Positions 16,075 through 31,845 of a DNA stretch of 51,953 nt are shown here, in pieces. The DNA is from an uncultured Solibacteraceae bacterium (GTDB lineage Bacteria > Acidobacteriota > Terriglobia > Bryobacterales > Bryobacteraceae). Made by a program: the position numbers and the translations under genes. Positions within the stretch are counted from its first letter, which is position 1. The number at the start of each line of letters is the position of its first letter. The stretch spans positions 4,827-56,779 of the forward strand of contig CAZWDD010000002.1 in the NCBI GenBank assembly GCA_964632345.1, given 5' to 3'. The notes below the pieces were generated by a model. That model worked only from the letters and a program-made list of their open reading frames with translations, was not told the DNA's origin and did not search any database.

Positions 16075-16977
16075 ATGCTTTCGCGCCGCAGTCTACTCAC
16101 CACCGCGCTTGCGGGGGCGGCGGGCGCCGCTCCGCGGCTGATTATCGACACGCACCTGGAGGTGTGGACGGACGACCCGAAGTTCCCGTTCGCGCATCCG
16201 GAGCGGCCGGATTTGAAACGGGTGGCGGTGCAGGCGCCGATTGAGAATCAGGTGCAGCAGATGAAGGATTTCGGGCTGCGGTACGCGGTACTGATCAACC
16301 CGCGGTACTTCGGCTGGGACAACTCCTACATCTCGTATTCGCTGCACAAGCATCCGGAACTGTTCGTGGCGCACGGGCTGGTGAATCCGCTGGACCCGAA
16401 GGTGCATGAGCGGCTGCGGTACTGGGTGAAGGAGCACGGCTTCCAGGGAATGCGGTTCAGCCCGATCTATCATCCGAAATCGACGTGGTTGAACTCCAAG
16501 GAGCACTATCCGCTGTGGAAGGAAGCCGAGCGGCTGGGAGCGGTGTTCAACTACTACATCCTGCCGCACCAGATGCCGATGCTCGAAGAGATGTGCGGGC
16601 GGTTTCCGGGGGTGAAAGTGGTGATCGACCACGCGGGGAAGCCGGACCTGAAGCTGGCCGATCCGTGGCCGGAGTTCCGGAAGATGTTCCGGCTGAAGAA
16701 GTTCAAGCAGGTGTGGATTTCGAACTCCGAGCCGTATGAGATGACGGAGTTGAAGAAGTATCCGTATGAGGATACGTGGCCGTTTTATAAGGCGATTTAT
16801 GAAGAGTTCGGCGGGCGGCAGATCATCTGGGGCACGGGGTATCCGCGGCCGCGGTGGGAACTGCCAATGGATAAAGAACTGGAGTTTGTGGACAAGTACT
16901 GTTCCTTCTACACGGAAGAGGACCGGCGCCTGATCCTTGGTGAAAACGCATTGCGAATCTGGAGGTTTCCGAAATGA
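16075..16977 (+). CDS. amidohydrolase-2 family TIM-barrel hydrolase (lactonase/decarboxylase type), with export signal
   Basis: Track ORF 15928..16977 trimmed to ATG 16075 (MLSRRSLLTTALAGAAGAAP). The motifs IIDTHLEVW and VVIDHAGKP fit the metal-ligand pattern of Amidohydro_2. An ATGA overlap with the next gene lies at 16974-16977. Confidence 0.8.
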   Translation: MLSRRSLLTTALAGAAGAAPRLIIDTHLEVWTDDPKFPFAHPERPDLKRVAVQAPIENQVQQMKDFGLRYAVLINPRYFGWDNSYISYSLHKHPELFVAHGLVNPLDPKVHERLRYWVKEHGFQGMRFSPIYHPKSTWLNSKEHYPLWKEAERLGAVFNYYILPHQMPMLEEMCGRFPGVKVVIDHAGKPDLKLADPWPEFRKMFRLKKFKQVWISNSEPYEMTELKKYPYEDTWPFYKAIYEEFGGRQIIWGTGYPRPRWELPMDKELEFVDKYCSFYTEEDRRLILGENALRIWRFPK

Positions 16978-18821
16978 GAGTTGCGGGATTGCTGGTGATG
17001 GCGGCGCTGGCGGCGGTGGCGCAGCCGGCGGTGCGGATCGATAAGCCTGTGTCGCCGCCGGCGTGGGCGCTGCTGGAGCGGGAGCTGCTGAAGCAGAGTT
17101 CGCTGGCCTGCGACCGGTTCGCGAACAAGTATCTGGACGCGCGGGGCTACCTGCTGCATACGCCGCGGTGGGGGACGCTGGACGGGCCGGACGACGCGAT
17201 TGAAACCTTCTACAACTGGACGCTGTTGCATGCGTTGGGCGGATCTGACACGGTGCTGGCGAACTACAAAAAGGCGTTGGAAGGCCACCTGCTGCAGTAC
17301 AAGGAACTGCGGACGGTGAAGACGAAGCTGGCCGAGAATGGCGCCTATCACAAGGAGTTCATCACGAAGTCCGACTGGTTCCACACGGGCGAGGGGATGC
17401 GGGCGTTTATGTTCCTGGGCTTGTCGGACCCGGCGGACCCGGTGCTGCGGCTGCGGATGAAGCGGTTCGCCGGGCTGTACATGAACGAAGATCCGGAGGC
17501 GCCGAACTACGATCCGGTGCAGAAGATCATCAAGAGCATCTGGACGGGCAGCAAGGGGCCGATGCTGCACAAGGCGACGACGTATGACTGGGTGGGCGAC
17601 GCGGTGCCGGGCACGTTCCACCTGCTGCACGGGAAGCAGGGGCGGGGCGGGATGGTGGACCTGACGAGCGTCTACGACAAGATGCTGGCGCATTGCGACG
17701 AGTATCTGGACAGCGTGGGGGATCATCCGCTGAACCTGGCATCGACGGGGTTGGCGATGAACGCCTACATGCTGACGGGCGAGAAGAAATACAAAGACTG
17801 GGTGCTGGAATACGTGGGCGCGTGGAAGCAGCGGACGGACGCCAACGGCGGAAACATTCCGACGAATATCGGCCTGAACGGGCAGGTGGGCGGGGAGTAT
17901 GGAGGCAAGTGGTACAAGGGCACCTACGGGTGGAACTTCACGATCTACGACGGCGAGATTGAGAAGATGGCGCACCGGAACACGTTCGACGCGGGGGCGT
18001 GGCCGGGGTTCGGGAATGCGTTTCTGCTGAGCAGGGGGGACGCGGGATTCGTGGCGACGCTGCGGAAGCAGATGGAGAATCTGTACGCGCAGAAGAAGGT
18101 GATCGACGGCAAGACGATGCTGCCGAACGGATACGGCGACCCGCGCGGGCATAAGTACACGGGCGGGAAAGAGGAGTGGTACAACTACACGCCGAACCTG
18201 TTCACGAACCGGTTGACGGAGATCTACCTGTGGTCGATGGACCCGAAGGACCGGGAGAAGTTTGCCGGGGATGCGTGGCTATCGTTCCTGGAAGGGAAGG
18301 ACGCGGGGTATCCGGAGCGGGCGCTGCGGCAGGAGTTGGAGATGGTGCGACGGAAGGTGAACGAGATTGAAAACGACGACACCTCCGCCGATACGCGGCT
18401 GGCCGATTACCTGATGGGCTTCAACCCGGCGGCGACCGATGCGCTTTCCAAGCTGACGCTGGGTTCCTACCTGAGCGGCAACATCTGGACGCTGCACGCG
18501 CGGGTGCGGTATTTCGACCCGGCGCGGCGGCGGAGCGGGCTGCCGGAGGACGTGGCGGCGCTGGTGGAAGGCTTCACGGCGGACAGCGTGGCGGTGCGAC
18601 TGGTGAACGTGAGCAGCGTGGAGGCGCGGGAGGTGGCGGTACAGGCCGGGGCGTACGGCGAGCATCAGATTGTGTCGGCGACGGTGGGCGGGAAGACGGT
18701 GAACGTGAACGGGCCGGTGTTGCACGTGCGGCTTGCGCCAGGGGCCGGGGACCGGGTGGAACTGCGGGTGAAACGGTATGCCAATGAGCCGACGCTGCGT
18801 CAGCCATGGGGCCGGGAATAG
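16974..18821 (+). CDS. secreted protein of unrecognised family (615 aa)
   Basis: Long ORF with signal peptide MRVAGLLVMAALAAVAQP and normal amino-acid composition. It is translationally coupled to the upstream amidohydrolase. I recognise no motif. Confidence 0.75.
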   Translation: MRVAGLLVMAALAAVAQPAVRIDKPVSPPAWALLERELLKQSSLACDRFANKYLDARGYLLHTPRWGTLDGPDDAIETFYNWTLLHALGGSDTVLANYKKALEGHLLQYKELRTVKTKLAENGAYHKEFITKSDWFHTGEGMRAFMFLGLSDPADPVLRLRMKRFAGLYMNEDPEAPNYDPVQKIIKSIWTGSKGPMLHKATTYDWVGDAVPGTFHLLHGKQGRGGMVDLTSVYDKMLAHCDEYLDSVGDHPLNLASTGLAMNAYMLTGEKKYKDWVLEYVGAWKQRTDANGGNIPTNIGLNGQVGGEYGGKWYKGTYGWNFTIYDGEIEKMAHRNTFDAGAWPGFGNAFLLSRGDAGFVATLRKQMENLYAQKKVIDGKTMLPNGYGDPRGHKYTGGKEEWYNYTPNLFTNRLTEIYLWSMDPKDREKFAGDAWLSFLEGKDAGYPERALRQELEMVRRKVNEIENDDTSADTRLADYLMGFNPAATDALSKLTLGSYLSGNIWTLHARVRYFDPARRRSGLPEDVAALVEGFTADSVAVRLVNVSSVEAREVAVQAGAYGEHQIVSATVGGKTVNVNGPVLHVRLAPGAGDRVELRVKRYANEPTLRQPWGRE

Positions 18822-18824
18822 GGA

Positions 18825-18830
18825 TAGAGT
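18825..18830 (+). promoter_or_regulatory. candidate -10 element TAGAGT, 7 nt before ATG 18838 (leaderless geometry)
   Basis: The sequence is TAGAGT, then agaacgg, then ATG, all within the 16-nt gap after the previous stop. Confidence 0.4.
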
Positions 18831-18837
18831 AGAACGG

Positions 18838-20073
18838 ATGAATTCGAAGCGGTGGTACGTCGTCTGCTGGTTGAGCCTGGGCATGGTGATTGCCTATATC
18901 GACCGGGTGAACCTGACTTCGGCAATGCCGGAGATTGGAAAGATGCTGCAGTTGGACGAGGCGCAGCGTGGGATGGCGCTATCGGCGTTTTTCTGGACGT
19001 ATACGATCGGCCAGATTCCGGCCGGAATGCTGGTGGACCGGCACGGCGTCCGCATGCTGTACACGGCGGGAATCGTGTTGTGGAGTATAGCCTCGGCCGC
19101 GACGGTGTTTACGACAGGGCTGTGGGCACTGATCGCGACGCGGCTGGTGGTGGGGCTGGGCGAGAGCGTGGTGACGTCATCGTCGCTGCGGTATATCCGG
19201 GCGCACTTCGCGGAGAAGGAGCGCGGGTTCGCGGTGGGCGTCTACATGACGGGGACGAAGATCGGGCCGGCCGTGGGGCTGCCGCTGGCGGGATTCCTGG
19301 TGGTGCAGTACGGGTGGCAGGCGATGTTCCTGATGATGGGACTGGGGAGCCTGCTGTGGCTGGGGCCGTGGCTGGGATGGGTGAAGAGCGACGACCCGGC
19401 GGCGGTGGCGGCTGTGCCGGGGACGGCGAAGGGCGGCGATAGCGTATCGCTGGGAGATGCGCTGAAGAGCCGGGTGATGTGGGGCATCATCATCGGCACT
19501 TACTGCTACATGTACTTCGTTTATTACTGCATGACGTGGATGCCGCAGTATTTCCAGAAGACGCACGGGATGTCGATCAAGGATTCGAACTGGTTCGGCG
19601 GCGTGTCGTTCGGCGGGATGGCGGCGGTGGCGGCGATCGGTGGATGGGCGGCGGACCGGATGATCGCCCGCGGAGCGGAACCGATCTTCGTGCGGCGGCT
19701 GTTCACAGTGGCGGGGTTCCTGATGGCGGCGATGCAGACGCTGAGCGTGTTCACGGATTCGAAGGAGCTGATGATCGGGCTGACGGTGGCGTCCCTGTGC
19801 GGGCTGGGGCTGGCGACGGCGAACTACTGGGCGCTGACGCAGACGCTGATGCCGGGCGCGGTGCCGGTGGCGATCCAGAACACGGCGGCGAATCTGGCGG
19901 GCATTGTGGCGCCGTGGCTGACGGGCTGGATGGTGAAGGAGACGGGCAGCTTCGACGCGCCGATCAAGGCCGTGGGAATCTGGCTGATGCTGGGCGTGTT
20001 CGCCTATATGTTCATGGTCAGGCGTTCCGCATCTGCTGTGCCAACTGCTGCGCAGCCGACTTCAGCAGCATAA
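18838..20073 (+). CDS. MFS transporter (anion:cation symporter / hexuronate-galactonate-like)
   Basis: Track ORF 18778..20073 trimmed to ATG 18838 (MNSKRWYVVCWLSLGMVIAYIDRVNL). There are about 12 hydrophobic segments. The loop motifs GMLVDRHGVR and LVVGLGES are MFS-type. Confidence 0.9.
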   Translation: MNSKRWYVVCWLSLGMVIAYIDRVNLTSAMPEIGKMLQLDEAQRGMALSAFFWTYTIGQIPAGMLVDRHGVRMLYTAGIVLWSIASAATVFTTGLWALIATRLVVGLGESVVTSSSLRYIRAHFAEKERGFAVGVYMTGTKIGPAVGLPLAGFLVVQYGWQAMFLMMGLGSLLWLGPWLGWVKSDDPAAVAAVPGTAKGGDSVSLGDALKSRVMWGIIIGTYCYMYFVYYCMTWMPQYFQKTHGMSIKDSNWFGGVSFGGMAAVAAIGGWAADRMIARGAEPIFVRRLFTVAGFLMAAMQTLSVFTDSKELMIGLTVASLCGLGLATANYWALTQTLMPGAVPVAIQNTAANLAGIVAPWLTGWMVKETGSFDAPIKAVGIWLMLGVFAYMFMVRRSASAVPTAAQPTSAA

Positions 20074-20776
20074 CGTCGGTGCCGGCGGTGAGGAAGCGGA
20101 AGCCCATGTCGCGGTAGCGGCGGGTTTCGGCGCCGGAGGGCAGCAGGATGCCGGCGACGCGGTTGTGCTTCGCCGCGGCGGCGAGCGTCTTTTCGAGCGC
20201 ATCGGTGAAGCGGGGGTGGGTGTAGTCGCGGAAGACGCCGAGGCTGGTGGACAGATCCATGGGGCCGATGTAGAGGACGCCGACGCCTTCGACGGCGGCG
20301 ATCTCCTCGACGTTTTCGACGGCCTGGGCGGTTTCGATCTGAATGATGGGAAGCAGGGAGGAGAGGGAGTCGACGCGATAGTCGTTGTAGTGCTCGCCGT
20401 AGCCGGCGGCGCGGACAACGGTGGCGACGCCGCGGACGCCATCGGGGGGATAGCGCATGGCGGCGATGCATTCGCGGGCCTGGGCGGCGGTTTCAACGCG
20501 GGGAAACATGATGCCCTGCACGCCGAGATCGAGCAGGCGGTGGACGCGCTGCTTTTCGAGCGACTCGACGCGGACGACGGGAATGGCGGGCGTCTGGCCG
20601 AGGGCGTGGAGCTGGCCGAGGATGTCGCGCTCCGAGCCCATGCCGTGTTCGAGATCGATGATGACGTAGTCAAACCCGGCCAAGCCCATCAATTCGGTAT
20701 TGACGGGGTAGCCGGTGGAGATGAAGGCGCCCATGAGGGTATCGCCCTGGGCGAGATGATTCCAGCGGTTTTTCAT
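20018..20776 (-). CDS. HpcH/HpaI family 2-keto-3-deoxy-acid aldolase
   Basis: 252-aa ORF. The motifs FDYVIIDLEHG, VVRVES, GIMFPRVETAAQA and MRYPPDGVRG are typical of HpcH/HpaI/YfaU aldolases. An ATGA overlap with the upstream gene lies at 20773-20776. Confidence 0.9.
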   Translation of the reverse strand: MKNRWNHLAQGDTLMGAFISTGYPVNTELMGLAGFDYVIIDLEHGMGSERDILGQLHALGQTPAIPVVRVESLEKQRVHRLLDLGVQGIMFPRVETAAQARECIAAMRYPPDGVRGVATVVRAAGYGEHYNDYRVDSLSSLLPIIQIETAQAVENVEEIAAVEGVGVLYIGPMDLSTSLGVFRDYTHPRFTDALEKTLAAAAKHNRVAGILLPSGAETRRYRDMGFRFLTAGTDVMLLKSAAQQLAQQMRNA

Positions 20777-21879
20777 TGGGAGATGACCTGCCGCGCCACC
20801 TGGTAGCGCGCGAGTTTTTCCGGACTGACGGCGTAGCCGAGGCCGGGCGTTTCGGGAAGGGCGATGCGGCCGCCGCAGACTTCGAGGAAGGGTTCGATGA
20901 TGTCGTCGCGGAACCAGCGAAGGCTGGCCTCGACGTCGGTGGGATAGTCGCAGCCATCGAGGGCGGCCATGGCGGCGCCCTGTGCCTGGCCGATGCCGAG
21001 TTCGGGCATGGTGCCCATCCAGATGGACAGGCCGAGCGCGCGGCAGCGGTGGTAGAGCTTCAGGGCGTTGCGGAAGCCGCCGACGCGTTGGATCTTGATG
21101 TTGGCGATGCGGAAGGAGCCGAGCGCGGCGGCGCGTTCGAGATCGGCGAAGGTCTCCAGGCTTTCATCGAGGCAGATAGGGGTGCGCAGGGCGCGCTGGA
21201 GCGTGGCGGAGTCCTCAAGCGCGGGGCCAGCGAGCGGCTGCTCATACATGCGGAGGCCGAAATCGTCGAGCTGGCGATAGATATCGAGATGATCGAGCGT
21301 GTAGGAGGCGTTGGCATCGGTCATCAAGGGGATGTCGCCGAAGCAGGCGCGGACGGCGCGGACGAGTTCGATGTCATGGCCGGGACAGATCTTGATCTTC
21401 ACGCGCTTGTAGCCATCAGGCAGGTACTTGGCGATGGTGGCCAGGAGTTGATCCGGCGAGTCGTAGAGGCCGACGGCGAGGCCGGACTCGGCGTGGTTGC
21501 GGGTGGCGCCGAGAAGGCGGTGGACCGGGAGGCCCTGGCGCTGGGCTTCCAGATCCCACAGCGCGGTTTCGAGGCCGACCTTGGCAAAGTTGCTGCCGGG
21601 CTGGGCGTCAATCCAGGCGCTGGCGGCATCGAGCGAATCAAACGTGCGGCCGGCGAGGGCCGGGGCGAGTTCGGTGGTCAACTGCTGCCAGCAGGAGGCA
21701 GGGGTGTCGGCCGAGTAGAAGCTGCCGGCCATGGGGGAGGACTCGCCGTAGCCGATGAGGCCGTCCGATTCGACAGCGGCGACGATGCCATCCTTCTCCG
21801 CCACTTCGCCGTTGGAGATGCGGAACGGCTCATGGAGCGGGATGCGGACGTGCGTGAGGGTGATGCGCCCGATCCGCAT
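20773..21879 (-). CDS. enolase-superfamily enzyme, MLE subgroup (OSBS / N-acylamino-acid racemase / epimerase-like)
   Basis: 368-aa ORF with the K-x-K motif VKIKI. The metal ligands are in DANASY, YEQPL and CLDES, and a second lysine is in KIQRVGG. Its start overlaps the stop of the upstream gene by 1 nt (TGATG). Confidence 0.85.
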   Translation of the reverse strand: MRIGRITLTHVRIPLHEPFRISNGEVAEKDGIVAAVESDGLIGYGESSPMAGSFYSADTPASCWQQLTTELAPALAGRTFDSLDAASAWIDAQPGSNFAKVGLETALWDLEAQRQGLPVHRLLGATRNHAESGLAVGLYDSPDQLLATIAKYLPDGYKRVKIKICPGHDIELVRAVRACFGDIPLMTDANASYTLDHLDIYRQLDDFGLRMYEQPLAGPALEDSATLQRALRTPICLDESLETFADLERAAALGSFRIANIKIQRVGGFRNALKLYHRCRALGLSIWMGTMPELGIGQAQGAAMAALDGCDYPTDVEASLRWFRDDIIEPFLEVCGGRIALPETPGLGYAVSPEKLARYQVARQVISQ

Positions 21880-23150
21880 CAGCCCTTCATCTCCAGGCCG
21901 CGCATGGTGCCGGTGGCACTGGCGAATTTGTCCGATTCAATGCCCATGCGCTGCAGCATGCTGACAAACAAATTGGGCAGCGGATAGTTGCGGGCGGTGT
22001 CGAAGGCCAGGTGGCTGCCGTGGCGGAAGCCGCCGCCGGCGAGCAGGACGGGCATGTTGTCGGTGGTGTGTTTGTTGGCGTCGCCGAAGTTGCTGCCGTA
22101 AAGGACCATGGTGCGGTCGAGCAGGGATTCGCCGCCCTCCCGGACGCCGCGGAGCTTGCCGAGGAGTTCAGCGAGCAGGCGCATGTGCCAGGTGTCGATG
22201 GCCTCCAACTGCTTCAGCTTGGATTCGTTTTTTCCGTGGTGAGAGAGGTTGTGATAGCCGTCGGTGATTTCGACGCCCTTGACGTCGATGGCGGGGGAGT
22301 TGGAACTATCGAGGAAGAGGGTGATGAGCCGGGTGGAATCGGTCTCAAACGCAAGGCGGGAGATATCGTACATGAGCCGGGTTTTTTCCATGTAGGCGCG
22401 GCTGTCGGCGGGGTCGACGGGCTGCGGCTCCTTCGTCTGCGGCTTGGGCTTGCGCTCCCACTCCTGGGAGAGGACCATGCGCCGCTCCAGTTCGCGGACT
22501 CCGGTTTCGTACTGATCGAGGCGGGCGCGATCCTGCGCGCCCAACTGCTGTTTCAGGCCGCCGGCGTGCGCGGCAACGGAATCGAGAATGCTTTCACCGA
22601 GCTTGAGGCGGGCCACCTGCCGTTCGACCTCTTCGGCGGTGCCCTGCAGGAAGAGCTTGCGGTAGACCTGGGCGGGGCTTTCCTCGCAGCCGATCATGAC
22701 GCCGGCGCCGGTCCAGGTGAGGCTGCGCTGGCCGCGGTTGACGTTGACGCCCAAGGTGATTGAAGGGAAGCGGGTCTGGACGCCGATGCGGTCGGCCATG
22801 TACTGGTCGAGCGAGATGGTGTTGCGGAAGCCGCCGTTGGCGGGATGGGGCGCGGCGGTGAGGAAGCAGATCTCCGAGGCGTGGCTGCCGTCGACATCCG
22901 GATGAGAGACGCCGCTGAAGACGGTGAAGTCATTGCGGTAATCGGCCAGGACCTGCAGGTAGGGAGAGAGCGTGTACTCCTTGCCCGCATTGGCCGGGAA
23001 GAAGCCGCCGGGGAGGAGACCGAGGTTGTTGCAGACGGCGAGCATGCGGCGCGGGGGCGGGGCGTTCTGCGCTTCGAGCCAGGGGAGCGAGAAGGCGACT
23101 CCGGCGGCGCGGAGGACCTGGCGGCGTGTCAACGGGGAGATGCGTTTCAT
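21879..23150 (-). CDS. DUF1552 domain protein, TAT signal
   Basis: 423-aa ORF with [19 protein letters not shown]. The blocks [26 protein letters not shown] and [17 protein letters not shown] fit DUF1552. It starts 3 nt after the stop of the upstream gene. Confidence 0.8.
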
Positions 23151-23153
23151 GGC

Positions 23154-25676
23154 CTATTTATGGGTGAACAGATCGCTCTGGACGATTTGGTGGAGGAGGG
23201 TACGCAGGCCGTAGCGGTCCGCCGCGGCTGCATCCAGCATACGCTCGACGGCCCCCCGGTCGGCAAACGAGACGGGGGCGCCGGTGGCATAGGTGAGGAG
23301 TTGGACGGCGGCGTTGCGGGCGATGGCGCGTTCGTCCTGGAGGAGGAGTTTTTTCAGCCCGTTGACGTTGGAGAAGGTGGCGCCGCTGGCGAGGGCGCCG
23401 GAGGAGTCAACGGGCTGGCCGTGCTTGAAAGTGAAGAGATGGCCGTTCTTGCCGACGCCGTTGGCGGGGGCGCCGGATTCGGTGGAGCGGTAACGGTCGC
23501 GCCATCCGCCGGCCACGTCGAAGCTTTCGAGGGCGAAGCCGGGCGGATCGATTTTGATGTGACAGGAGGCGCAGCCGGGGTTGTTGCGGTGTTTGTCGAG
23601 TTGCTCGCGGATAGTGGTGGCGCCGCGGGTGTCGGGTTCAACGGCGGGCACGCCAGGCGGAGGAGGAGGCGGCGGGTCCCCGAGAATACGTTCCAGGATC
23701 CAGACGCCGCGGAGGACTGGCGAAGTGGTGGTGCCGTTGGCGGTGACCTTAAGGACGCTGGCCTGGGTGAGGAGGCCGCCGCGGACGGAGCCGGGCGGGA
23801 GGGAGGCGAGGCGGAGGGCGACGCCATGAACAGGATCGAGCCCGTAGTGGCGGGCGAGGTGGGAGTTGAGGAAGGTGAAGTTGGAATCGATGAGATTGGC
23901 GGCGGGGAGGTTGCGGCGGAGGAGGTGGTGGACGAAGAGCTGGGTTTCGCGCTGGGCGGATTCGGTGAGCAGGTCGTCGAGGTAGTAGTCGGGATAGAGA
24001 GTCTGGTCGGGAGTGGTGTCGTTGAGCTTGCGGAGGTCGAGCCAGTAGTCGAGGAAGGCGTCGACGAAAGAGCGGGAGCGGGCGTCGTCGAGGAGGCGAT
24101 CGGTCTGGGCGCGGAGGACGGCGGGATCGAGAAGCGCGCCGGATTCGGCGAGGGCGCGGAGGCGGCGGTCCGGCGGGCCGTTCCAGAGGAAGTAGGACAG
24201 GCGGCTGGCGAGGGCGTGGGAGGTGAGGCGGCCGGGCTCCTCTTCGAGATAGAGGAGGCCGGGCGAGCAGAGGACGGCGACGTAGGAGGCGATCATGGCC
24301 TCGGAGAAGTTGTCGAGGCGGTCGAGGGCGATGCGGAGGTAGCGCTGGACTTCGGGCTCCGTGGGCGGGCGGCGGTAGGCGCGAGCCATGAACTGGCGAA
24401 GGAGTTTTCCGGCCTCGCGCCGGGGGTTGGCGGGGCTGGGCGCGGCCGGGTCGAGCGCGCCGAAGAGACGGCGGACGCCGAGGCGGGCGGCGGCGTTTTC
24501 GACGGGGCCGGTGACCTCCATCCAGCGGTAGGCGACGCCGGGCATGCCGTGCTTGGAGGCGTCCGGGCTGCCGGTGAAGCCGGGGCGGGAGCGGAAGAGG
24601 CGGGCGGCGTCGGGGAGGATGCGTTCGCCGGGCAGGAGGTCCACTTCGAGTTCATGGACCGCGGGGTCCGGATCGACATCGAACCAGCCGAGCCAGCGCT
24701 TCTCGCCGCCGGGGCTGAGGGCGTAGATGGTGACGGGTTCGGTGGTGCGGCCTTTTTCGGTGGACTCGCGATTGGGGGTCCACCAGGGATCGGCGCGCTT
24801 GCGGCTTTCGTTGGTGAAGATGGTGTTGATCCAAAGGGAGAAGGCGTTGAAGCGGAGGCGGTAGCGGCCGCCGGAGGGGGCGGCGAACTGGTCCCAGTGG
24901 TGTTCGTTGCCGACGTAGTTGCCGGCGGGGGTGGCAAAGCCTTCGAGTTCGCGGGTGGCAGGATCGGCCGCGCCAACGGTGAAGGGAACCTTTTCGGCAA
25001 GAACATCGGGCTGGGCGGCGAAGCCGAGAATGGGGATGGTGGCGCGCTCCGGGTGGCGATTGAAGGAGCTGTAGCGCATGCGGTTCTGGAAGCGCTTCTG
25101 CTCGCGGGCGTAGAAGCGGCGAGTCTCCTCGGGCTGGCGGGCGGCGGCGAGGACCTGGCGGATGGCGGATTCGGCAGTCTCCATGTAGCGCGCCATCTGG
25201 ACGTGAGAGACGTCGAGCGCCTGGCCCACCTTGTTGAAGCGGTTGAGGACGCCGTCCTCGGGAAGCGAATCGCGGAGCTGCAGCCAGCGGGCGGCGAGCA
25301 GATCGCGGACCGTGTTTTCGTACTCGTAGCGATTGAGGCGGCGGAGGACGGCGCGGCCGTGCTGCTGAGTGCGTGCGTTTTCGTGAGCAATAAGCGGTTT
25401 GGCGAGTGCGGCAAGAAAGGCCGGGCGGCCGTCGGGCGCGGGGGTTCCGCGGGGAGGCATGGCGCCGTCGCGCACCGAGTCATGGACGCGGACCCAGCGG
25501 GAGAAGTTGTGCGGGTCGGCGGGCTGAAGCGGGAGCGCCTTCAGGTCGAGGCCGGCGGGGGCGCGGGCGCCGCTGTGGCAGCCGGTGCAGTTGCGGTCGA
25601 GGAAGGCGCGGACGGCGGGCGGCGGCTCGGCGGCAGCCACGAGCGGCAGGGTGAGCAATAGCAGGGTTCGCAGCAA
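23154..25676 (-). CDS. DUF1587/DUF1595/DUF1592/DUF1588/DUF1585 multidomain protein with CxxCH motifs
   Basis: 840-aa ORF with a TTG start and GGAGGA 8 nt upstream, plus a signal peptide. Diagnostic blocks are NCTGCHSG, RRLNRYEYENTVRDLL, LCSPGLLYLEE, LASRLSYFLWNGPPD, TSPVLRGVWILERILG and GCASCHIKIDPPGFALESFD. Confidence 0.85.
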   Translation of the reverse strand: MLRTLLLLTLPLVAAAEPPPAVRAFLDRNCTGCHSGARAPAGLDLKALPLQPADPHNFSRWVRVHDSVRDGAMPPRGTPAPDGRPAFLAALAKPLIAHENARTQQHGRAVLRRLNRYEYENTVRDLLAARWLQLRDSLPEDGVLNRFNKVGQALDVSHVQMARYMETAESAIRQVLAAARQPEETRRFYAREQKRFQNRMRYSSFNRHPERATIPILGFAAQPDVLAEKVPFTVGAADPATRELEGFATPAGNYVGNEHHWDQFAAPSGGRYRLRFNAFSLWINTIFTNESRKRADPWWTPNRESTEKGRTTEPVTIYALSPGGEKRWLGWFDVDPDPAVHELEVDLLPGERILPDAARLFRSRPGFTGSPDASKHGMPGVAYRWMEVTGPVENAAARLGVRRLFGALDPAAPSPANPRREAGKLLRQFMARAYRRPPTEPEVQRYLRIALDRLDNFSEAMIASYVAVLCSPGLLYLEEEPGRLTSHALASRLSYFLWNGPPDRRLRALAESGALLDPAVLRAQTDRLLDDARSRSFVDAFLDYWLDLRKLNDTTPDQTLYPDYYLDDLLTESAQRETQLFVHHLLRRNLPAANLIDSNFTFLNSHLARHYGLDPVHGVALRLASLPPGSVRGGLLTQASVLKVTANGTTTSPVLRGVWILERILGDPPPPPPPGVPAVEPDTRGATTIREQLDKHRNNPGCASCHIKIDPPGFALESFDVAGGWRDRYRSTESGAPANGVGKNGHLFTFKHGQPVDSSGALASGATFSNVNGLKKLLLQDERAIARNAAVQLLTYATGAPVSFADRGAVERMLDAAAADRYGLRTLLHQIVQSDLFTHK

Positions 25677-25693
25677 CAGGTGGGTCCTCCGCG

Positions 25694-27085
25694 TCAGGCG
25701 AGAATTCCGTGAATCGGGCCGGTTCCTTCCTCAATCATGTGGAGCGGGCGGCCGTTGACGACGACGCTCATCCGCTTGTAGTCGAGCCCCATCTGCTGGA
25801 GCACGGTGGCCTGCAGGTCGGTGACGTAGTGGCGGTTTTCAACGGCCTTATAGCCGATATCATCGGTGGCGCCATAGACGGTGCCGCCCTTTACGCCGCC
25901 GCCGGCGAGCCAGCAGGTGAAGCCGTTGGGGTTGTGATCCCGGCCGACATCGTTCTGCGAATAGGGCGTGCGGCCGAACTCGGTGGCCCAGACGACCATG
26001 GTGGATTCCAGCATGCCGCGCTGTTTCAGATCCTTGATGAGGCCGGCGATGGGCTTATCGGTCTGGCGGGCGAGCGGGCCGTGATCCTTCATATTCTCGT
26101 GGGAATCCCACTTGCCGTTGCCGGCGCCGCCGCCGTGGCAGACCTGGATGAAGCGGACGCCGCGTTCGGCGAGTCGGCGGGCGAGCAGCATCTGGCGGCC
26201 GAACTCGTCGGTATCCTCCTCGCCGACGCCGTACATGGCGCGCACATGGGCGGGTTCCTTGGCGAAATCGACGAGTTCGGGACCGGCCACCTGCAGCGTT
26301 CCGGCTAGCTCATAGGCGCGGGTGCGGGCGGCGACTTCGGCGTCGAAGGCGTGGCGTTCGTGGAACTCGCGATTCAGCCGGGCGAGGACCTCCATCTGGC
26401 GGTCCCGTTCGGCGCGACTGAGGCCGGGCTGGAGCTTTAAGTTCTCGAGCGGTGTTTCACCGGCGAGAAAGGGCGTGGCCGATTCGGCGCCGCCGAGGTA
26501 GCCGCCGGTGGACTGCGCCGGGGCCGAGGGCTTGCCCATGGCGACGTAGGTGGGCAGATTTTTGTTGCCGCTGCCGAGGGCGTAGCTGATCCAGGCGCCG
26601 GTGGCCGGGTGGTCAAAGATGCGGTTGCGATGGCCGGTGGACATCTCCCAGCAGGCGGGGAAGTGGCCAACCTCGTGGCAGAACATGGAGCGGACGATGG
26701 CGATATCGTCGACAACGGAGCCGATGTGGGGGAACCACTCGCAGACGGGCGTGCCGCTTTTGCCGTAGCGGGTCCAGACGCGCGGGCAGTGAAGCACGGG
26801 GCGGAGCTGGGGCTTGCCGTCGTTGGAGTTCTTGGTCTCCAACATGCGGCCGGCGTGCTTGTTGTCCTTGGGGTCAAACGTGTCCATGGCGCTGACGCCA
26901 CCGCACATAAACAGGAAGATGACCGACTTCACTTTCGGCGCGAAATGCGGCCCGGCGCCGGGGCGGATGAACTTGCCGTCCTCTGCCCAGAGGGTGGAGA
27001 GTGCGGCGCCGGTGACGCCGAAGCGGAGCTGGCGGAGGAAGGCGCGGCGGCTGGATTCCGACGAGAGGGGCGAGTGGAAGATCAT
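25694..27085 (-). CDS. DUF1501 domain protein (sulfatase/alkaline-phosphatase-like fold), TAT signal
   Basis: 463-aa ORF with SRRAFLRQLRFGVTGAAL. The blocks KSVIFLFMCGGVSAMDTFDPKDN and VVWATEFGRTPYSQN fit DUF1501. An ATGA overlap with the upstream gene lies at 27082-27085. Confidence 0.9.
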   Translation of the reverse strand: MIFHSPLSSESSRRAFLRQLRFGVTGAALSTLWAEDGKFIRPGAGPHFAPKVKSVIFLFMCGGVSAMDTFDPKDNKHAGRMLETKNSNDGKPQLRPVLHCPRVWTRYGKSGTPVCEWFPHIGSVVDDIAIVRSMFCHEVGHFPACWEMSTGHRNRIFDHPATGAWISYALGSGNKNLPTYVAMGKPSAPAQSTGGYLGGAESATPFLAGETPLENLKLQPGLSRAERDRQMEVLARLNREFHERHAFDAEVAARTRAYELAGTLQVAGPELVDFAKEPAHVRAMYGVGEEDTDEFGRQMLLARRLAERGVRFIQVCHGGGAGNGKWDSHENMKDHGPLARQTDKPIAGLIKDLKQRGMLESTMVVWATEFGRTPYSQNDVGRDHNPNGFTCWLAGGGVKGGTVYGATDDIGYKAVENRHYVTDLQATVLQQMGLDYKRMSVVVNGRPLHMIEEGTGPIHGILA

Positions 27086-29166
27086 GGCAGGAATACGAAC
27101 TCGCTGAGGTTGAGCAGCATCCAGGCGAAGCCCGTCAACTGTTCGGGCTGCGCGGTTTTCAGGTACGACAGGGCGGCGTCGCGTTCAGAGGGCGAGGGCG
27201 GGCGGCCGAGGGTGAGCTTGAAGCCGTAGTCGACTTTGTCGGCGGGACGGGGGCCGGCTTCGCGGTGGAGGCGTACGGCCAGGTCTCGCGAGGCGGCTTG
27301 CGGCAGGCTGCCGTTCAACAGATAGAGCACCTGCGGGGCGGTGATGGTGCGTTCGCGGCGGGCGCAGGGGACATGGCCGTCTTCGGCGTCAAAGGTGGTG
27401 AGAAAGGCGGGCATCATGTTCATCGACGTGTCGGCGCCGCGGCCCATGTAGATGCCGCGGCGGTTGTCGCGTTTGTCGTAGTTACCGGTGCGGGCGGCGC
27501 TCATGACGCGGCGCTCGCCGATGGCCTCGCCGCGGAAGGAGACGCCGCCGATGGAGAGATCCAGCGTGCCGGCTGCGGCAAGCATGGAGTCACGGATGAT
27601 TTCGGCTTCCAGGCGGCGGACGGGGAACTTCCAGAGGTGCTTGTTCGTCGGATCGATGGCCTCGTTGGCGGCGCGAAGCTCCGGCGTGGCGACGGAGGAC
27701 TGCTGGTAGGCATCCGACATGACGATGAGCTTGTGCAAGGCCTTCATGCTGTATTTGCGGGCGACGAACTCGCTGGCGAGCAGGTCCAGGAGTTCGGGGT
27801 TGACGGGCATCTGGCCGGTGCGGCCGAAGTCCGACGGCGTGGCGACGATGCCGTCACCGAAGTGCCACTGCCAGATGCGGTTGACGGCGACACGGGCGAA
27901 GAAGGGATTGGCCGGGGCGGTGAGCCAGTTGAGGAAGGCCTGGCGGCGGTCGCCGGAGAAGGAGAGATCCTTGGGCGCGAAGGGGAAGCCGGGCTGGACT
28001 TCGTCGCCCTTCTTGGTGCGGTCGCCGCCGATGTAGATGTGGCTGGGGCGGGCGGCGCGGGCAGCGTCGGCGCGGACGGTCCAGAAGTGGGGAAGGACGG
28101 GGAGGTCCCGGCGGATGGAGACCTGGCTCTGGCGGGTCCACTCGTATTGGACGGTGGTTTCGAGCGGGAGAGTATCGCGGTAGGCGCGCGGGTCGGGCTC
28201 GACGACGGAGTTGTAGAGCGCCACGAATTTTTTGTCCTCGTCGGTGCGGGCGGCGGGATCCTTCTTAAAAGCGGCCTGCGCTTCGGCGGGCAGGAAGGCG
28301 ACGCGCTCATCGATGATCTTCTGCGTGTAGGGAGCGGTGAAGGCATCGATGCGAGGCTGGATGGCGGCCATTTCGGCGCGGGCCTTGGCAAGGATCTCCT
28401 CGTGGCGCATGATTTCGGCGGCCGAGGCGAGGTTGCGCTTTTCCGGCACCAGGGGATCGAACAGCGCCTTCATGCCGTAGTAGTCACGCTGGAGGATGGG
28501 GTCGTACATGTGGTCATGGCACTTGGCGCAGGCGGTGGTCATGGCCATGAAGGCGGAGGAGACTTTTTCGACGGCCTCGGTGGCGAGGTCCTCATTGGGG
28601 TCGTTGGGATTGCGGACGGCGCGGGAGAGGAAGGCGGTGGCGAAGAAGTCATCGGCGCGGGGGGAGAGGTCGCCGGCGATGTGGGCGCGCACGAACTGGT
28701 CGTAGGGAATATCGCGATTGAGGGCGCGGATCATCCAGTCCCGCCAGAGGTAGATGGACTTTTCGGCCAGCATGTTCTCGTCGACGTCGGCATAGGCGAG
28801 GACGTCGAGCCAGTGGCGGGCGTAGCGGACGCCGTGTTGGGGATCGGCGAGGAGGCGATCGACGGCCTTTTCGTAGGCGTTGGGAGAGTGGTCGGCGAGG
28901 AAGGCGTCAACTTCGGCGGGTGAGGGGGGAAGGCCGGTGAGGTCGAGGTGGAGGCGGCGGAGGAGAGTGGCCCTGCTGGCGCGGGGGGCGGCGCGGAGGC
29001 CCTTGTGGGCATGAGCGCGGGAGAGCAGGACGTCGATGGGATTGCGGGCGTCGTCGTCGACGGCGGGGCGCTGGACCGGCTTCTGGGACCAAAGCGGCGG
29101 CTTCTGCGCAGACAGGGGTAACAAGGCCGGCACGAGTGCCAGCAGCGCAAGACATAGCCGATGCAT
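27082..29166 (-). CDS. DUF1549/DUF1553 (PSD1-type) protein
   Basis: 694-aa ORF with a signal peptide. The DUF1549 block is NPIDVLL...LLRRLHLDLTGLPPSPAEVDAFLAD...YARHWLDVLAYAD. The DUF1553 block is CAKCHDHMYDPILQRDYY. Confidence 0.9.
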   Translation of the reverse strand: MHRLCLALLALVPALLPLSAQKPPLWSQKPVQRPAVDDDARNPIDVLLSRAHAHKGLRAAPRASRATLLRRLHLDLTGLPPSPAEVDAFLADHSPNAYEKAVDRLLADPQHGVRYARHWLDVLAYADVDENMLAEKSIYLWRDWMIRALNRDIPYDQFVRAHIAGDLSPRADDFFATAFLSRAVRNPNDPNEDLATEAVEKVSSAFMAMTTACAKCHDHMYDPILQRDYYGMKALFDPLVPEKRNLASAAEIMRHEEILAKARAEMAAIQPRIDAFTAPYTQKIIDERVAFLPAEAQAAFKKDPAARTDEDKKFVALYNSVVEPDPRAYRDTLPLETTVQYEWTRQSQVSIRRDLPVLPHFWTVRADAARAARPSHIYIGGDRTKKGDEVQPGFPFAPKDLSFSGDRRQAFLNWLTAPANPFFARVAVNRIWQWHFGDGIVATPSDFGRTGQMPVNPELLDLLASEFVARKYSMKALHKLIVMSDAYQQSSVATPELRAANEAIDPTNKHLWKFPVRRLEAEIIRDSMLAAAGTLDLSIGGVSFRGEAIGERRVMSAARTGNYDKRDNRRGIYMGRGADTSMNMMPAFLTTFDAEDGHVPCARRERTITAPQVLYLLNGSLPQAASRDLAVRLHREAGPRPADKVDYGFKLTLGRPPSPSERDAALSYLKTAQPEQLTGFAWMLLNLSEFVFLP

Positions 29167-29185: not shown

Positions 29186-29215
29186 AAAACGAAAAGGGCG
29201 GGCCGGAACCCGCCC
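29186..29215 (-). terminator. Rho-independent terminator of the phosphorylase gene
   Basis: The minus strand has a GGGCGGG / CCCGCCC 7-bp stem (29215-29209 / 29202-29196) with a 6-nt loop, followed by TTTTCGTTTT. It lies 20 nt after the stop at 29235. Confidence 0.7.
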
Positions 29216-29234
29216 TCGTATTAGTGGAACCGGA

Positions 29235-31778
29235 TCAACTCCACTTGAGCAGCGCGTTGCTGGGGCGCGTCAGCGGGTGGTCAAAATGGTTGCTCGACAC
29301 ACGGAAAGCGCAGCCGAGGCGGCCGGTCTGGTGAGGTGCGTAGTCACAGCCAAAGGTCCACGCGGCGCCGCGCTGCTCCATCGGCGTGAGGCGGACAATC
29401 TCGGTATCCTCCAAGGCGCCGTCGGCATCGATGCGGCCGACAACGGCCTCGACGCGCACATCCTTCGGGACGAGACCGGCAAGATCAACCACCGCGCGCA
29501 GCGGCATGGGATGGCCGGAGAGCACCGGCCCGTGCGGCGCGCCGCCAACCTCGACAAACTTCACCTGCGCCCAGGCGGCCTGGATCTGCCGGTCCCATGC
29601 GACGCGTTCCTTGCTGCGGCTGAAGTTGTCGCTGCGGGTTTCGGCGCGGTACTCGTGGGCCGGATCGTAGAGTAGGCGCGAGTAGTCATCCAGCATGCGG
29701 CGGGCGTCGTACTGCGGGGTCAACGCCCGGATGGACTGCTTCATGCGCTTGACCCACTCCGTCGGCACTTCGTCGGCGCGGGCGGCGTAGTAGAGCGGCA
29801 GGATTTCGTTTTCCAGCATGGACAGGACGGATGAGGCGTGGATTTCGTCCTGGTCGTCCGCGTACGGTTCGCGGTCGCCGATGGCCCAGCCACCGGAGAC
29901 CTCATAGGACTCGTCGAACCAGCCATCGAGAATGGAGAGGTTCAGCACGCCATTAATGCCGGCCTTCATGCCGGAGGTGCCGCAGGCCTCTTCGCCACGG
30001 CGGGGGTTGTTGAGCCAGATATCGACGCCATGCACGAGCTCGCGGGCGACGGCGATGGAGTAGTCCTCTACGAAGACGAGGCGATTGGCGATTTCCGGAT
30101 CGCGCGAGAGCTGGAAGATCTCGCGGATGAGCGTTTTGCCGGGGATGTCCTTCGGGTGCGCCTTGCCGGCCACGAGGATCTGCACGGGCATGCGGTTGTT
30201 GGTGAGCAGACGCTTCAGGCGCGGCAGGTCCCGCAGCATGAGGGTGGCGCGCTTATAGGTGGCGAAGCGGCGGGCGAAGCCGATCGTGAAAATGTCGGGA
30301 TCCAGGGCCTCCGAGAGGCGGCGAATCTCCGGCGAGGCGGCCTTGCGCTGCTGCGCACCCTGCAACAGGCGGTTGCGGACGAAGCTGATCAACTGGCGCT
30401 TCCGCTTCTTGTGGGCCTCCCAGATTTCGGCGTCCGGGATGTCATCGATGAGCTTCCAGGTATCGGGATCGGTGGCCTTGTCCTTCCAATCCGGCTGCAG
30501 GTAGTTGTCGTAGAGGGCCACCAGGTCGCCATTGACCCAGGAGCCGACGTGGACGCCGTTGGTGACGTGGGTGATGGGAATCTCCCAGGCCGGAACGTTC
30601 GGCCACAGGTCCTGCCACATCTCGCGGGAGACGACGCCGTGCAGGGCGCTGACGCCATTGCGCCAGCAACTGGTGCGGATGGCGAGGATGGCCATCGAGA
30701 ACGGCTCGCCGTGGTCATGCGGGTTGCGGCGGCCGAGCGACATCAACTGGTCGATGGAGAAGCCGGTCTTCTGGCAGTAGCCGGTGAAGTAATGGTGCAT
30801 GAGGCCGGGGTCGAACAGGTCGATGCCGGCGGGGACAGGGGTGTGCGTGGTGAAGACGTTATTGGCGCGGCAGGTTTCGATAGCCTCGTCGAAGGTAAGG
30901 CCGTAGTTGGCCATCAGGACGCGGATCCGCTCGAGCGCGAGGAAGGCCGAGTGGCCCTCATTCATGTGGAAGACGGTGGGCTCGATGCCCATGGCGCGGA
31001 GTGCGCGCAGGCCGCCGATGCCGAGGACGATCTCCTGGCGGATGCGGGTGTTGGAATCGCCGCCGTAGAGCTGGTCGGTGATGTCGCGCACTTCCGGGTT
31101 GGGATTCTGCGGGATGTTCGTGTCGAGCAAGAAGAGCCGGACGCGGCCCACCTGGATTTTCCAGACCTTGGCACAGATGTCGCCGCCGGGCATGGGGATG
31201 TCGACGATGAGCTCCGACCCGTCTTCCTTCACCACCGGCCGGAGCGGGAGGGTGTAGAAGTCGTTTTCGGGTGACTTTTCGATCTGCCAGCCGTCCGGGT
31301 TCAGAGACTGGCGGAGATAGCCCTTCTGATAAAGGAGCCCGACGCCGATGAGCGGCAGGGCCAGATCGGAGGCGCCCTTGAGATGATCACCCGACAGGAC
31401 GCCGAGGCCGCCGGAGTAGATAGGCAGGCATTCGGCGAGGCCGTACTCCATGGAGAAGTAGGCGATGAGCTTGCCGGAGTCCGGCGGGGCGGCCTGCATG
31501 TAAGCATCGAGGCGGTCACAGGACTTCTGGTACATCGCAACGAAGCGAGGGTCGGCGGCTGCCTTTTCAAGAGTGGCTTGGGAGACTTGCCCAAGCATAC
31601 GGACGGGGTTGTGGGAGGAGCTACGCCATTCGGCGACGTCGAGGCGGCGGAACATACTGCGAATGTCCCGGTCCCATACCCAAAGGAGGTTGTAGGCGAG
31701 TTCGGAGAGGCGCGACAGAGCGGCGGGAAGGGCTGGCTGAACTAAGAACTCATGTTGTGGACGAATCTGGAACGGCAT
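29235..31778 (-). CDS. glgP: alpha-glucan phosphorylase (GT35, glycogen/maltodextrin phosphorylase, DUF3417-type N-terminus)
   Basis: The track ORF begins at TTG 31844. I prefer ATG 31778 (MPFQIRPQHEF), which leaves a 73-nt divergent intergenic region. Diagnostic blocks are LSELAYNLLWVWD, YFSMEYGL, PIYSGGLGVLSGDHLK, and EACGTSGMKAGINGVLNLSILDGWF (PLP-lysine region). Confidence 0.9.
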   Translation of the reverse strand: MPFQIRPQHEFLVQPALPAALSRLSELAYNLLWVWDRDIRSMFRRLDVAEWRSSSHNPVRMLGQVSQATLEKAAADPRFVAMYQKSCDRLDAYMQAAPPDSGKLIAYFSMEYGLAECLPIYSGGLGVLSGDHLKGASDLALPLIGVGLLYQKGYLRQSLNPDGWQIEKSPENDFYTLPLRPVVKEDGSELIVDIPMPGGDICAKVWKIQVGRVRLFLLDTNIPQNPNPEVRDITDQLYGGDSNTRIRQEIVLGIGGLRALRAMGIEPTVFHMNEGHSAFLALERIRVLMANYGLTFDEAIETCRANNVFTTHTPVPAGIDLFDPGLMHHYFTGYCQKTGFSIDQLMSLGRRNPHDHGEPFSMAILAIRTSCWRNGVSALHGVVSREMWQDLWPNVPAWEIPITHVTNGVHVGSWVNGDLVALYDNYLQPDWKDKATDPDTWKLIDDIPDAEIWEAHKKRKRQLISFVRNRLLQGAQQRKAASPEIRRLSEALDPDIFTIGFARRFATYKRATLMLRDLPRLKRLLTNNRMPVQILVAGKAHPKDIPGKTLIREIFQLSRDPEIANRLVFVEDYSIAVARELVHGVDIWLNNPRRGEEACGTSGMKAGINGVLNLSILDGWFDESYEVSGGWAIGDREPYADDQDEIHASSVLSMLENEILPLYYAARADEVPTEWVKRMKQSIRALTPQYDARRMLDDYSRLLYDPAHEYRAETRSDNFSRSKERVAWDRQIQAAWAQVKFVEVGGAPHGPVLSGHPMPLRAVVDLAGLVPKDVRVEAVVGRIDADGALEDTEIVRLTPMEQRGAAWTFGCDYAPHQTGRLGCAFRVSSNHFDHPLTRPSNALLKWS

Positions 31779-31822
31779 AATATAACGAATTTTCAGGGTA
31801 CCAGACGCGGCAGGGAGGGGTG

Positions 31823-31845
31823 TCGCGTGGAACACGCGATACAAT
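31823..31845. promoter_or_regulatory. perfect 17-bp palindrome TCGCGTG-GAA-CACGCGA abutting a TACAAT -10-like hexamer (candidate operator + promoter)
   Basis: The arms at 31823-31829 and 31833-31839 are exact reverse complements. TACAAT (31840-31845) lies 6 nt before TTG 31852. The same motif, GCGTG-N4-ACGCGATA, recurs at 43123-43139. Confidence 0.4.

Follow-up and report, generated by a model that had tools for sequence, protein, structure and literature searches.

A six-gene string that joins two types of DUF pair to an enolase–aldolase pair in a Bryobacteraceae genome is probably a recent mosaic of separable modules

In a 51,953-nucleotide stretch of DNA from an uncultured Solibacteraceae bacterium (family Bryobacteraceae in GTDB; assembly GCA_964632345.1, contig CAZWDD010000002.1, positions 4,827 to 56,779 of the forward strand; hereafter the “window”), six closely spaced genes on the minus strand place two pairs of DUF genes directly ahead of genes for an enolase-superfamily enzyme and an HpcH aldolase. 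Does this arrangement reveal what the DUF pairs do? The genes are designated, in order, A (PSCyt2/PSD1), B (DUF1501), C (DUF1592-family), D (DUF1552), E (enolase-superfamily) and F (HpcH aldolase). Both pair types, A-B and C-D, belong to the uncharacterised gene families that have expanded most in Planctomycetota, Verrucomicrobiota and Acidobacteriota, and it would be of value to place them in a firm metabolic context. The original prediction, made from the sequence alone, held that this locus provides a concrete one. The observation itself is borne out, and its interpretation in part. We find that the locus supplies no such context: the modules are separable and the arrangement is lineage-specific. 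At a probability of roughly 70%, the string is a recent mosaic of three separable two-gene modules that are probably co-transcribed, and not one obligate pathway. Because the modules were joined recently by insertion and deletion, the arrangement is weak evidence for the function of the DUF pairs.

All six open reading frames (ORFs) lie exactly where they had been placed (Table 1), as judged from the ORF listing and Pfam. The junctions are likewise as described: an ATGA overlap of 4 nt at A/B, gaps of 17 nt at B/C and 3 nt at C/D, a TGATG overlap of 1 nt at D/E and an ATGA overlap of 4 nt at E/F. The TTG start codon of C has GGAGGA 8 nt ahead of it, within the B/C gap. Signal peptides of A to D were read from the sequence, and the CxxCH motifs attributed to A and C are present at the expected sites. 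The terminator of the glgP gene that was said to precede the string is also there, with a 10-pair stem (7 GC) and a T-run; in a terminator scan it was the sole strong minus-strand terminator between 15.5 and 32 kb of the window. Due to the lack of a strong internal terminator, the six genes are plausibly co-transcribed as one transcript. A TAAGCT hexamer that was taken for a −10 element is present upstream of A, but a sigma-70-type scan gives no promoter there, and its role as a −10 box should be considered a guess. Note that 57% of same-strand junctions in this genome are 17 nt or shorter and that 21 runs of at least six such genes occur, both figures being derived from crude gene calls. Since tight spacing is common across this genome, tight junctions alone are of little informative value.

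To place the string in its genus, the surroundings of E orthologues were fetched and their genes labelled by homology, which gave 13 informative sister-species loci. F follows E directly in all 13, and the same MFS transporter gene is convergent beside F in 11 (one contig ends first). Directly upstream of E there is a 715-aa glucose/sorbosone dehydrogenase (GSDH)-type gene at 10 loci and a TonB-type outer-membrane protein gene at three. The 715-aa product combines a PQQ-type GSDH beta-propeller with a C-terminal SO2930-type dihaem cytochrome c. Where this gene is present, C-D lies upstream in seven cases, only a remnant of D in one (L040) and neither gene in one (L042), and one contig ends. 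A-B stands at none of the 13 loci. Metagenome contigs L081 to L084 have the order C-D-YjbR-GSDH-E-F, and on one metagenome contig E is convergent with MFS-DUF8034-Amidohydro_2, without F. In some lineages, the small YjbR-family gene (108–111 aa) lies, with overlaps, between the DUF1552 and PQQ dehydrogenase genes (L082 3955–4290, L081 7560–7886); it is absent in L031.

The six-gene order was found beyond the window on a single contig only, JGI metagenome contig L058, which matches the window collinearly along 18.9 kb with 93.8% identical nucleotides, all junctions included. Because this contig is independent, the arrangement is real and not an assembly artefact. The assembly itself is a 6.17-Mb metagenome-assembled genome of 692 contigs with 6% contamination, properties that lend themselves to mis-assembly of a fragmented genome; since the collinear assembly came from another sample and reproduces every junction, such an error is extremely improbable. 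Homologues are labelled Bryobacteraceae or Acidobacteriota. The prediction was to fail if the arrangement proved unique to this genome; as a whole, the linkage of the six genes is confined to one lineage, represented by the window and L058, and for the whole arrangement the prediction therefore fails on its own terms. The tandem of both pair types is real here, and it too is confined to this lineage.

Comparison with the sister species shows how the string arose: in this lineage, deletion of the dehydrogenase gene fused the stop codon of D to the start codon of E, and A-B was inserted between glgP and C. In the sister species used for comparison (L031), D ends MRGLEPKGNA-stop, and after a further 3 nt comes the dehydrogenase gene, the stop codon of which overlaps the start codon of E. 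The D of the window ends MRGLEMKG-stop, and its TGA overlaps the ATG of E (TGATG, 21877..21881, minus strand). The overlap from which coupling of D to E had been deduced is thus real, but by this comparison it is the lineage-confined scar of a clean ∼2.1-kb deletion of the PQQ dehydrogenase/dihaem cytochrome c gene. No orthologue of the dehydrogenase was found elsewhere in this assembly, the best match being 31% identical.

Insertion of A-B is indicated by a second set of comparisons. Orthologues of B (80–92% identity) are found in six sister genomes, on contigs other than that carrying E. In genomes G019 and G004, the A-B orthologues lie 3 nt behind a CarboxypepD_reg/OMP_b-brl_4/TonB-type outer-membrane protein gene. 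The genes that flank this locus are present in our genome on contig C34, without the outer-membrane protein gene or A-B. The A-B pair was therefore relocated from a TonB-type outer-membrane protein locus to the site between glgP and C. At three sister junctions (L031, L035 and L038), glgP runs into C across a short spacer with no stem and T-run, and both the glgP terminator and A-B are new in this lineage. A-B is most likely an incidental passenger in this string. More generally, tight overlapping junctions in these genomes can result from very recent chance deletions or insertions, and the pairs act as mobile plug-in modules.

The modules also occur apart. D orthologues of 86–89% identity were found in eight genomes and lie with GSDH-E-F in all seven where the contig reaches that far, and D orthologues of 76–81% identity were found in five genomes without GSDH, E or F alongside. 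Six genomes that have E-F (G022, G012, G020, G006, G002 and G003) gave no D orthologue at E ≤ 1e-160. Conversely, three genomes (G024, G001 and G011) have C-D orthologues that are 79–81% identical and no E orthologue in the genome, and in G017 and G008 C-D is followed by genes for an ECF sigma factor and a HEAT-repeat protein. On contig C1 of G024 (L109 9501–16548), the C-D orthologue (80% identity) is divergent from another PSCyt2/PSD1 and DUF1501 pair and lies 96 nt from it; here the two pair types have come together in the genus a second time, independently.

Several observations weigh against a mosaic. Many lineages of the genus share the closely packed order C-D-(YjbR)-GSDH-E-F. The C-D orthologues of G024, G011 and G001 all border a different PSCyt2/PSD1-type gene, whose DUF1501 partner was confirmed in G024. 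Within the genome studied here, the enolase superfamily is the most DUF-enriched of all paralogue clusters of at least five members (8/30 versus 5.2%, about 5-fold, P about 1e-4).

The recurrent order could mean that C-D alone is integrated, with C-D-(YjbR)-GSDH-cytochrome c-E-F as a true genus-level operon and A-B as an incidental later insertion. D, with its alkaline-phosphatase fold, would then release or modify a periplasmic sugar, and C, with its haem motifs, would swap electrons with the dehydrogenase or its dihaem cytochrome. C-D is co-directional with GSDH-E-F, separated by 3-nt gaps or overlapping, in seven sister species and in L081 to L084; C, D and the dehydrogenase are all exported, and C and the dehydrogenase both carry haem c motifs. 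We nevertheless consider this explanation unlikely. C-D has been lost while GSDH-E-F was kept (L042, and L040 with its remnant), an outer-membrane protein gene takes the place of C-D in three species, and C-D orthologues elsewhere stand alone or ahead of an ECF sigma factor gene. Furthermore, the lineage of the window retains C-D despite having lost the dehydrogenase, and DUF1552 is not associated with enolase genes in other genomes. It is similarly doubtful that, within the subclade that links it to GSDH-E-F, C-D carries out one of the periplasmic steps. The genus-restricted operon is still a useful lead, as it sets a DUF1552 pair beside a periplasmic PQQ dehydrogenase/cytochrome.

Neighbourhood statistics were then used to ask how often the families meet. 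Of the 41 enolase-superfamily or HpcH genes in this genome, 10 have a DUF-pair gene no more than two genes away, versus a background of 5.2% (P = 4e-5). The window holds the only tight co-directional enolase/DUF junction in the genome and the only direct tandem of both pair types among 57 pairs. The second most enriched family near DUF pairs is a 551-aa family that is GMC-oxidoreductase-like by eye (3/6), and the 52 sulfatase genes are not enriched (4/52). The replication set consisted of four complete or near-complete Bryobacterales genomes from a sister family, with random positions as the null; G054 was left out due to its few matches. For DUF1501, 150 of 283 matches were listed, which yielded 134 usable genes in the four genomes. 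The 135 MR_MLE_C genes of the four genomes show no excess near DUF1552 (5 within 7 kb versus 4.6 expected) or near the 134 listed DUF1501 genes (12 versus 9.4 expected, P = 0.22), and DUF1552 genes are no nearer to DUF1501 genes than chance (4 versus 5.1 expected). The association between DUF pairs and enolase genes that had been anticipated is thus found in this genome but does not rise above chance in the other four, and co-occurrence of the two pair types with each other is not above chance in those four either.

These counts bear on the reading in which all six genes serve one pathway, the DUF pairs processing a periplasmic substrate and E and F finishing the product. The enrichment of enolase genes near DUF genes in this genome would fit, as would the tight junctions, the lack of a strong internal terminator and the independent contig with the same order. 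Such a pathway is very unlikely, however, as no more than one lineage has the order, a deletion left its scar at the D/E junction and A-B comes from an outer-membrane protein locus. In addition, the modules occur apart, the enrichment is absent in the four complete genomes and tight spacing is the norm in this one. A mosaic remains the preferred account of the string.

What, then, are the individual modules? PSCyt1, PSCyt2 and PSD1 together with DUF1501 have been described as a “conserved genetic module” of Planctomycetes and Verrucomicrobia (Kamneva et al. 2012, PMC3542564), and it was in Rhodopirellula baltica that the domains were originally defined (Studholme et al. 2004, as cited in PMC3542564 and PMC5615132). 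A-B resembles this module in that a PSCyt2 and PSD1 protein with a CxxCH motif and a signal peptide is encoded beside a Tat-signal DUF1501 protein, and in its many copies (about 60 pairs here). It differs in its acidobacterial host (Bryobacteraceae), in that A is without PSCyt1 and carbohydrate-binding additions, and in that its sister orthologue lies behind a gene for a TonB-type outer-membrane protein. Proteins with PSCyt3 and PSD-family domains together with DUF1552 (HXXSHH) form the second pair type (He et al. 2017, PMC5615132). C-D matches that description, with the full PSD3/PSD5/PSD4/PSCyt3/PSD2 architecture followed by DUF1552, and departs from it in that, in one genus, it forms part of an extended run that also includes PQQ dehydrogenase/cytochrome and enolase-HpcH genes. 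Other C-D paralogues of this genome are often followed by a gene for an exported ankyrin-repeat protein instead.

A-type and B-type genes number about 60 each in this genome, and C-D pairs about 20. A-B is a PF07583 and PF07587 protein co-directional with a PF07394 neighbour (E-values 9e-66, 3.5e-77 and 2e-124, respectively). Seventeen pairs were counted in which a PSD3/PSD5/PSD4/PSCyt3/PSD2 protein is followed by PF07586, a pattern that the C-D pair of the window fits. Among aligned paralogues from this genome, the CxxCH motif of A is invariant (38/38), as are both CxxCH motifs of C (12/12 and 12/12), and A and C may bind haem through these motifs. The twin-arginine motif is present in 36 of 41 DUF1501 and all 17 DUF1552 paralogues.

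Profile comparison with hhalign gave 98.3% for D versus DUF1501 over 354 columns, 95.7% for B versus the sulfatase family of this genome and 87% for D versus sulfatase; A and C showed no detectable homology to each other (9%). A sequence search of solved structures with B and D gave no match. An AlphaFold (AF2) model of D was obtained with a pLDDT of 84.4 and a pTM of 0.88, and when it was searched with Foldseek all top matches belonged to the alkaline-phosphatase superfamily (LtaS/LtaP, choline sulfatase, phosphonate monoester hydrolases and sulfatases). TM values were low (0.3–0.42) due to a long helical insert in D. By these comparisons, D is remotely homologous to DUF1501 and has the fold of the alkaline-phosphatase superfamily, and B has a remote similarity to the alkaline-phosphatase/sulfatase superfamily at the profile level. 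The invariant residues H90, D115, H304, D345 and H361 of D may serve as metal ligands, and a CxPxR motif was not observed. Each pair thus comprises a Sec-exported protein with invariant haem-attachment motifs and a Tat-exported, metalloenzyme-like partner with an alkaline-phosphatase fold. Published descriptions of both pair types agree with this composition and leave the function open (PMC3542564, PMC5615132).

A-B and C-D would accordingly be two copies of an abundant periplasmic design, and the DUF pairs may be viewed as plug-in modules that are gained and lost beside varied exported functions. Elsewhere in this genome, the genes packed closely beside DUF pairs on the same strand do vary, and include those for exported ankyrin-repeat, LRR and CBM9/beta-helix proteins, a GDSL esterase, a multihaem cytochrome, Tat-type GFO_IDH_MocA oxidoreductases, a phosphoesterase and a sulfatase. 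Among the 17 DUF1592/DUF1552 pairs, three are followed at −4 to +6 nt by a gene for an exported protein of 475–554 aa (C6:25153-26580, C10:16603-18267 and C32:5851-7380). The C6 protein is an ankyrin-repeat protein by Pfam and the C10 and C32 proteins look alike by eye, which suggests that the pair and an exported ankyrin-type protein form a recurrent three-gene unit.

E-F would constitute the cytoplasmic end of a set for organic-acid catabolism. F has PF03328 at 6.6e-39 and keeps residues H44, R69, E148 and D174. These correspond to H45, R70, E149 and D175 in the reference numbering. Among curated families and structures, F matches GarL, HpaI and YfaU/RhmA best, and its scores fall below all cut-offs of the GarL/HpaI/RhmA-type equivalogs (210.8 versus 393, 206.6 versus 406.75, 195.3 versus 368.8 and 141.4 versus 441). 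F is assigned by its sequence to the HpcH/HpaI class II pyruvate aldolases.

E scores 244.5 bits against TIGR01928, versus a cut-off of 200.65, and its best solved relatives are the NSAR/OSBS enzymes 1wuf, 1sja, 1r0m and 2zc8 (E-values 1e-60 to 1e-70, full length). Residues K161/K163, D188, E213, D238, K262 and R265 were placed by motif position. The signature of the NSAR/OSBS subfamily includes K163, K263 and, as a marker, the second-shell R266 (PMC12006748). On these grounds E is placed in the NSAR/OSBS subfamily of the MLE subgroup. It is like the enzymes of Amycolatopsis (1SJA), Listeria innocua (1WUF) and Deinococcus (1R0M) in matching over its full length at about 220–240 bits and in having KxK, the D/E/D residues, the lysine and, three residues on, the arginine. 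It is unlike them in being coupled to an aldolase, in having no menaquinone, GNAT or desuccinylase genes nearby, and in being a second copy restricted to certain lineages, in addition to a universal paralogue that is linked to GNAT. None of these three kinds of gene occurs in the window.

E-type orthologues (72–85% identity) are present in 16 of 28 genomes of the genus, and the second paralogue, ∼40% identical to E, in 60 of 61 genomes searched. In this genome, which has 30–34 enolase-superfamily and 6–7 HpcH genes, the universal paralogue lies on contig C136 (L056 254–5872) directly behind GNAT, in a MazG-GNAT-enolase-EamA-MFS string with overlapping junctions. This paralogue is probably a better candidate for an N-acyl-amino-acid racemase than E is. 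E was considered as the menC of the cell and found unsupported in that role, as it has no men context and its orthologues are missing from 12 of the 28 genomes of the genus. More distant relatives of E have varied surroundings: at 71–73% identity they are without F and adjoin CN_hydrolase or glgP, at 68% the order is E-HpcH-GNAT (L078), at 63% E overlaps an upstream amidohydrolase/deacetylase gene (PRK09237 above cut-off) flanked by M55 and M14 peptidase genes (L079 1612–3887), and at 53% HpcH is the divergent neighbour (G034). The setting in L079 is of a D-amino-acid or peptide type, unlike that of the window.

The most constant partners of E are the convergent genes for a D-galactonate-type MFS transporter and a Tat-exported lactonase-like Amidohydro_2 protein, often joined by the 615-aa protein; F is nearly always present. 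By analogy, a five-step acid-sugar route through E-F can be drawn, which we propose tentatively, at somewhat short of even odds. The PQQ dehydrogenase, in the sister species, would oxidise a sugar to a lactone in the periplasm, where the lactonase-like Amidohydro_2 protein would hydrolyse it to the acid. The MFS transporter would import the acid, E would abstract its alpha-proton so that beta-elimination gives a 4-hydroxy-2-oxo acid, and F would cleave this product to pyruvate and an aldehyde.

In E. coli, acid-sugar clusters encode L-rhamnonate dehydratase with YfaU and glucarate dehydratase with GarL, and combine an enolase-superfamily dehydratase, an HpcH aldolase and an MFS transporter of the anion:cation-symporter type. 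Acid-sugar enzymes are covered by Rakus et al. (2008) and Rea et al. (2008), both as cited in PMC2948282, and by PDB entries 2vws and 1dxe. E-F and the MFS gene represent the same trio of protein families, with F nearest to GarL, HpaI and YfaU. The differences are that E is in the NSAR/OSBS (MLE) subgroup, that F and the MFS transporter score far under every equivalog cut-off, and that the lactonase-like protein and the dehydrogenase of the relatives are periplasmic. Non-phosphorylative aldose routes proceed through a dehydrogenase, a lactonase and a dehydratase, followed by an aldolase or a dehydrogenase. The proposed route follows the same enzyme logic and has a lactonase of the Amidohydro_2 fold, a lactonase family to which L-fucono-1,5-lactonase belongs (NCBIfam NF052480). 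It is unlike those routes in its weak lactonase match, in the periplasmic location predicted for the first two steps and in the loss of the dehydrogenase from this lineage. For the Amidohydro_2 protein, the nearest curated families are lactonases (4-sulfomuconolactone hydrolase and L-fucono-1,5-lactonase), at 35–59 bits versus cut-offs of 400–500.

The placement of E in the NSAR/OSBS subfamily counts against the acid-sugar route, as no acid-sugar dehydratase is known from that subfamily. Distant relatives of E, moreover, adjoin amidohydrolase/deacetylase or GNAT genes, which are racemase-type contexts. E could instead be an N-succinyl- or N-acyl-amino-acid racemase or OSBS and not a dehydratase, in which case its pairing with an aldolase and a transporter would not denote an acid-sugar route. 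The TIGR01928 score above cut-off, the best solved relatives, conservation of K163, K262 and R265 (compare PMC12006748) and the 63–68%-identity relatives beside an amidohydrolase/deacetylase gene with M55 peptidase, or beside GNAT, all speak for this possibility. We think it unlikely, although it carries some weight: E is linked to HpcH in three arrangements (overlapping in the genus, E-HpcH-GNAT in L078 and divergent in L047), its constant partners are the D-galactonate-type MFS transporter and the lactonase-like protein, and the window has no men, desuccinylase or GNAT genes. The universal GNAT-adjacent paralogue also fits a racemase role better. Whichever activity E has, the recurrent pair of an NSAR/OSBS-like enolase and an HpcH aldolase is a useful lead with a substrate that is testable in vitro.

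A more ambitious proposal would join these threads: C-D-(YjbR)-PQQ dehydrogenase/cytochrome-E-F with the Tat-lactonase and the MFS transporter would be a genuine pathway, in which C-D is the periplasmic front end and E a hydroxy-acid dehydratase that feeds F. We regard this as quite improbable. If true, E would be the first hydroxy-acid dehydratase of the NSAR/OSBS subfamily to feed an HpcH aldolase, a new activity in a well-studied subfamily, and DUF1552 systems would have their first metabolic anchor.

Table 1. Features of the six-gene string and its surroundings (positions are those of the window).
Feature	Position	Strand	Description
A	27082-29166	-	694 aa; Pfam PSCyt2 (DUF1549) and PSD1 (DUF1553); Sec signal; CAKCH at 213
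B	25694-27085	-	463 aa; Pfam DUF1501; twin-arginine signal SRRAFL
C	23154-25676	-	840 aa; Pfam PSCyt1/PSD3/PSD5/PSD4/PSCyt3/PSD2; Sec signal; CTGCH at 30, CASCH at 702; TTG start
D	21879-23150	-	423 aa; Pfam DUF1552 (HXXSHH); twin-arginine signal TRRQVL
E	20773-21879	-	368 aa; Pfam MR_MLE_N and MR_MLE_C; no signal peptide
F	20018-20776	-	252 aa; Pfam HpcH_HpaI; no signal peptide
glgP-type alpha-glucan phosphorylase	29235..31844	-	upstream neighbour of A here, of C in sister species
Intrinsic terminator after glgP	29194..29217	-	stem and T-run; absent at this position in L031, L035 and L038 junctions
MFS transporter	18778..20073	+	D-galactonate-transporter (anion:cation symporter) subfamily; convergent
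Unknown-function protein	16974..18821	+	615 aa; Sec-type signal; no Pfam match; DUF8034 in relatives
Amidohydro_2 protein	16075..16977	+	twin-arginine signal from M50 (likely true start)

The convergent neighbours of the string, namely the genes for the MFS transporter, the exported amidohydrolase and the secreted protein, are as the original prediction described them. The 3′ ends of the MFS gene and F overlap by 56 nt (20018–20073), which leaves no space for a terminator. Presence of the 615-aa protein gene varies among the sister species. The protein has four paralogues in this genome, including one encoded directly downstream of another DUF1552 gene (C438:1-294), one adjoining a sulfatase-DUF1501-PSCyt2 string (C67:15510-17249) and one at C294:5561-7081. 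A 595-aa gene upstream of E in L078 was considered as a relative of the 615-aa protein and rejected as unrelated. Finally, GC skew, calculated as (G−C)/(G+C), is +0.15 to +0.36 over the first ∼32 kb of the window, far in excess of usual bacterial values, falls to 0.09 at 32–34 kb and is ∼0 past 34 kb.

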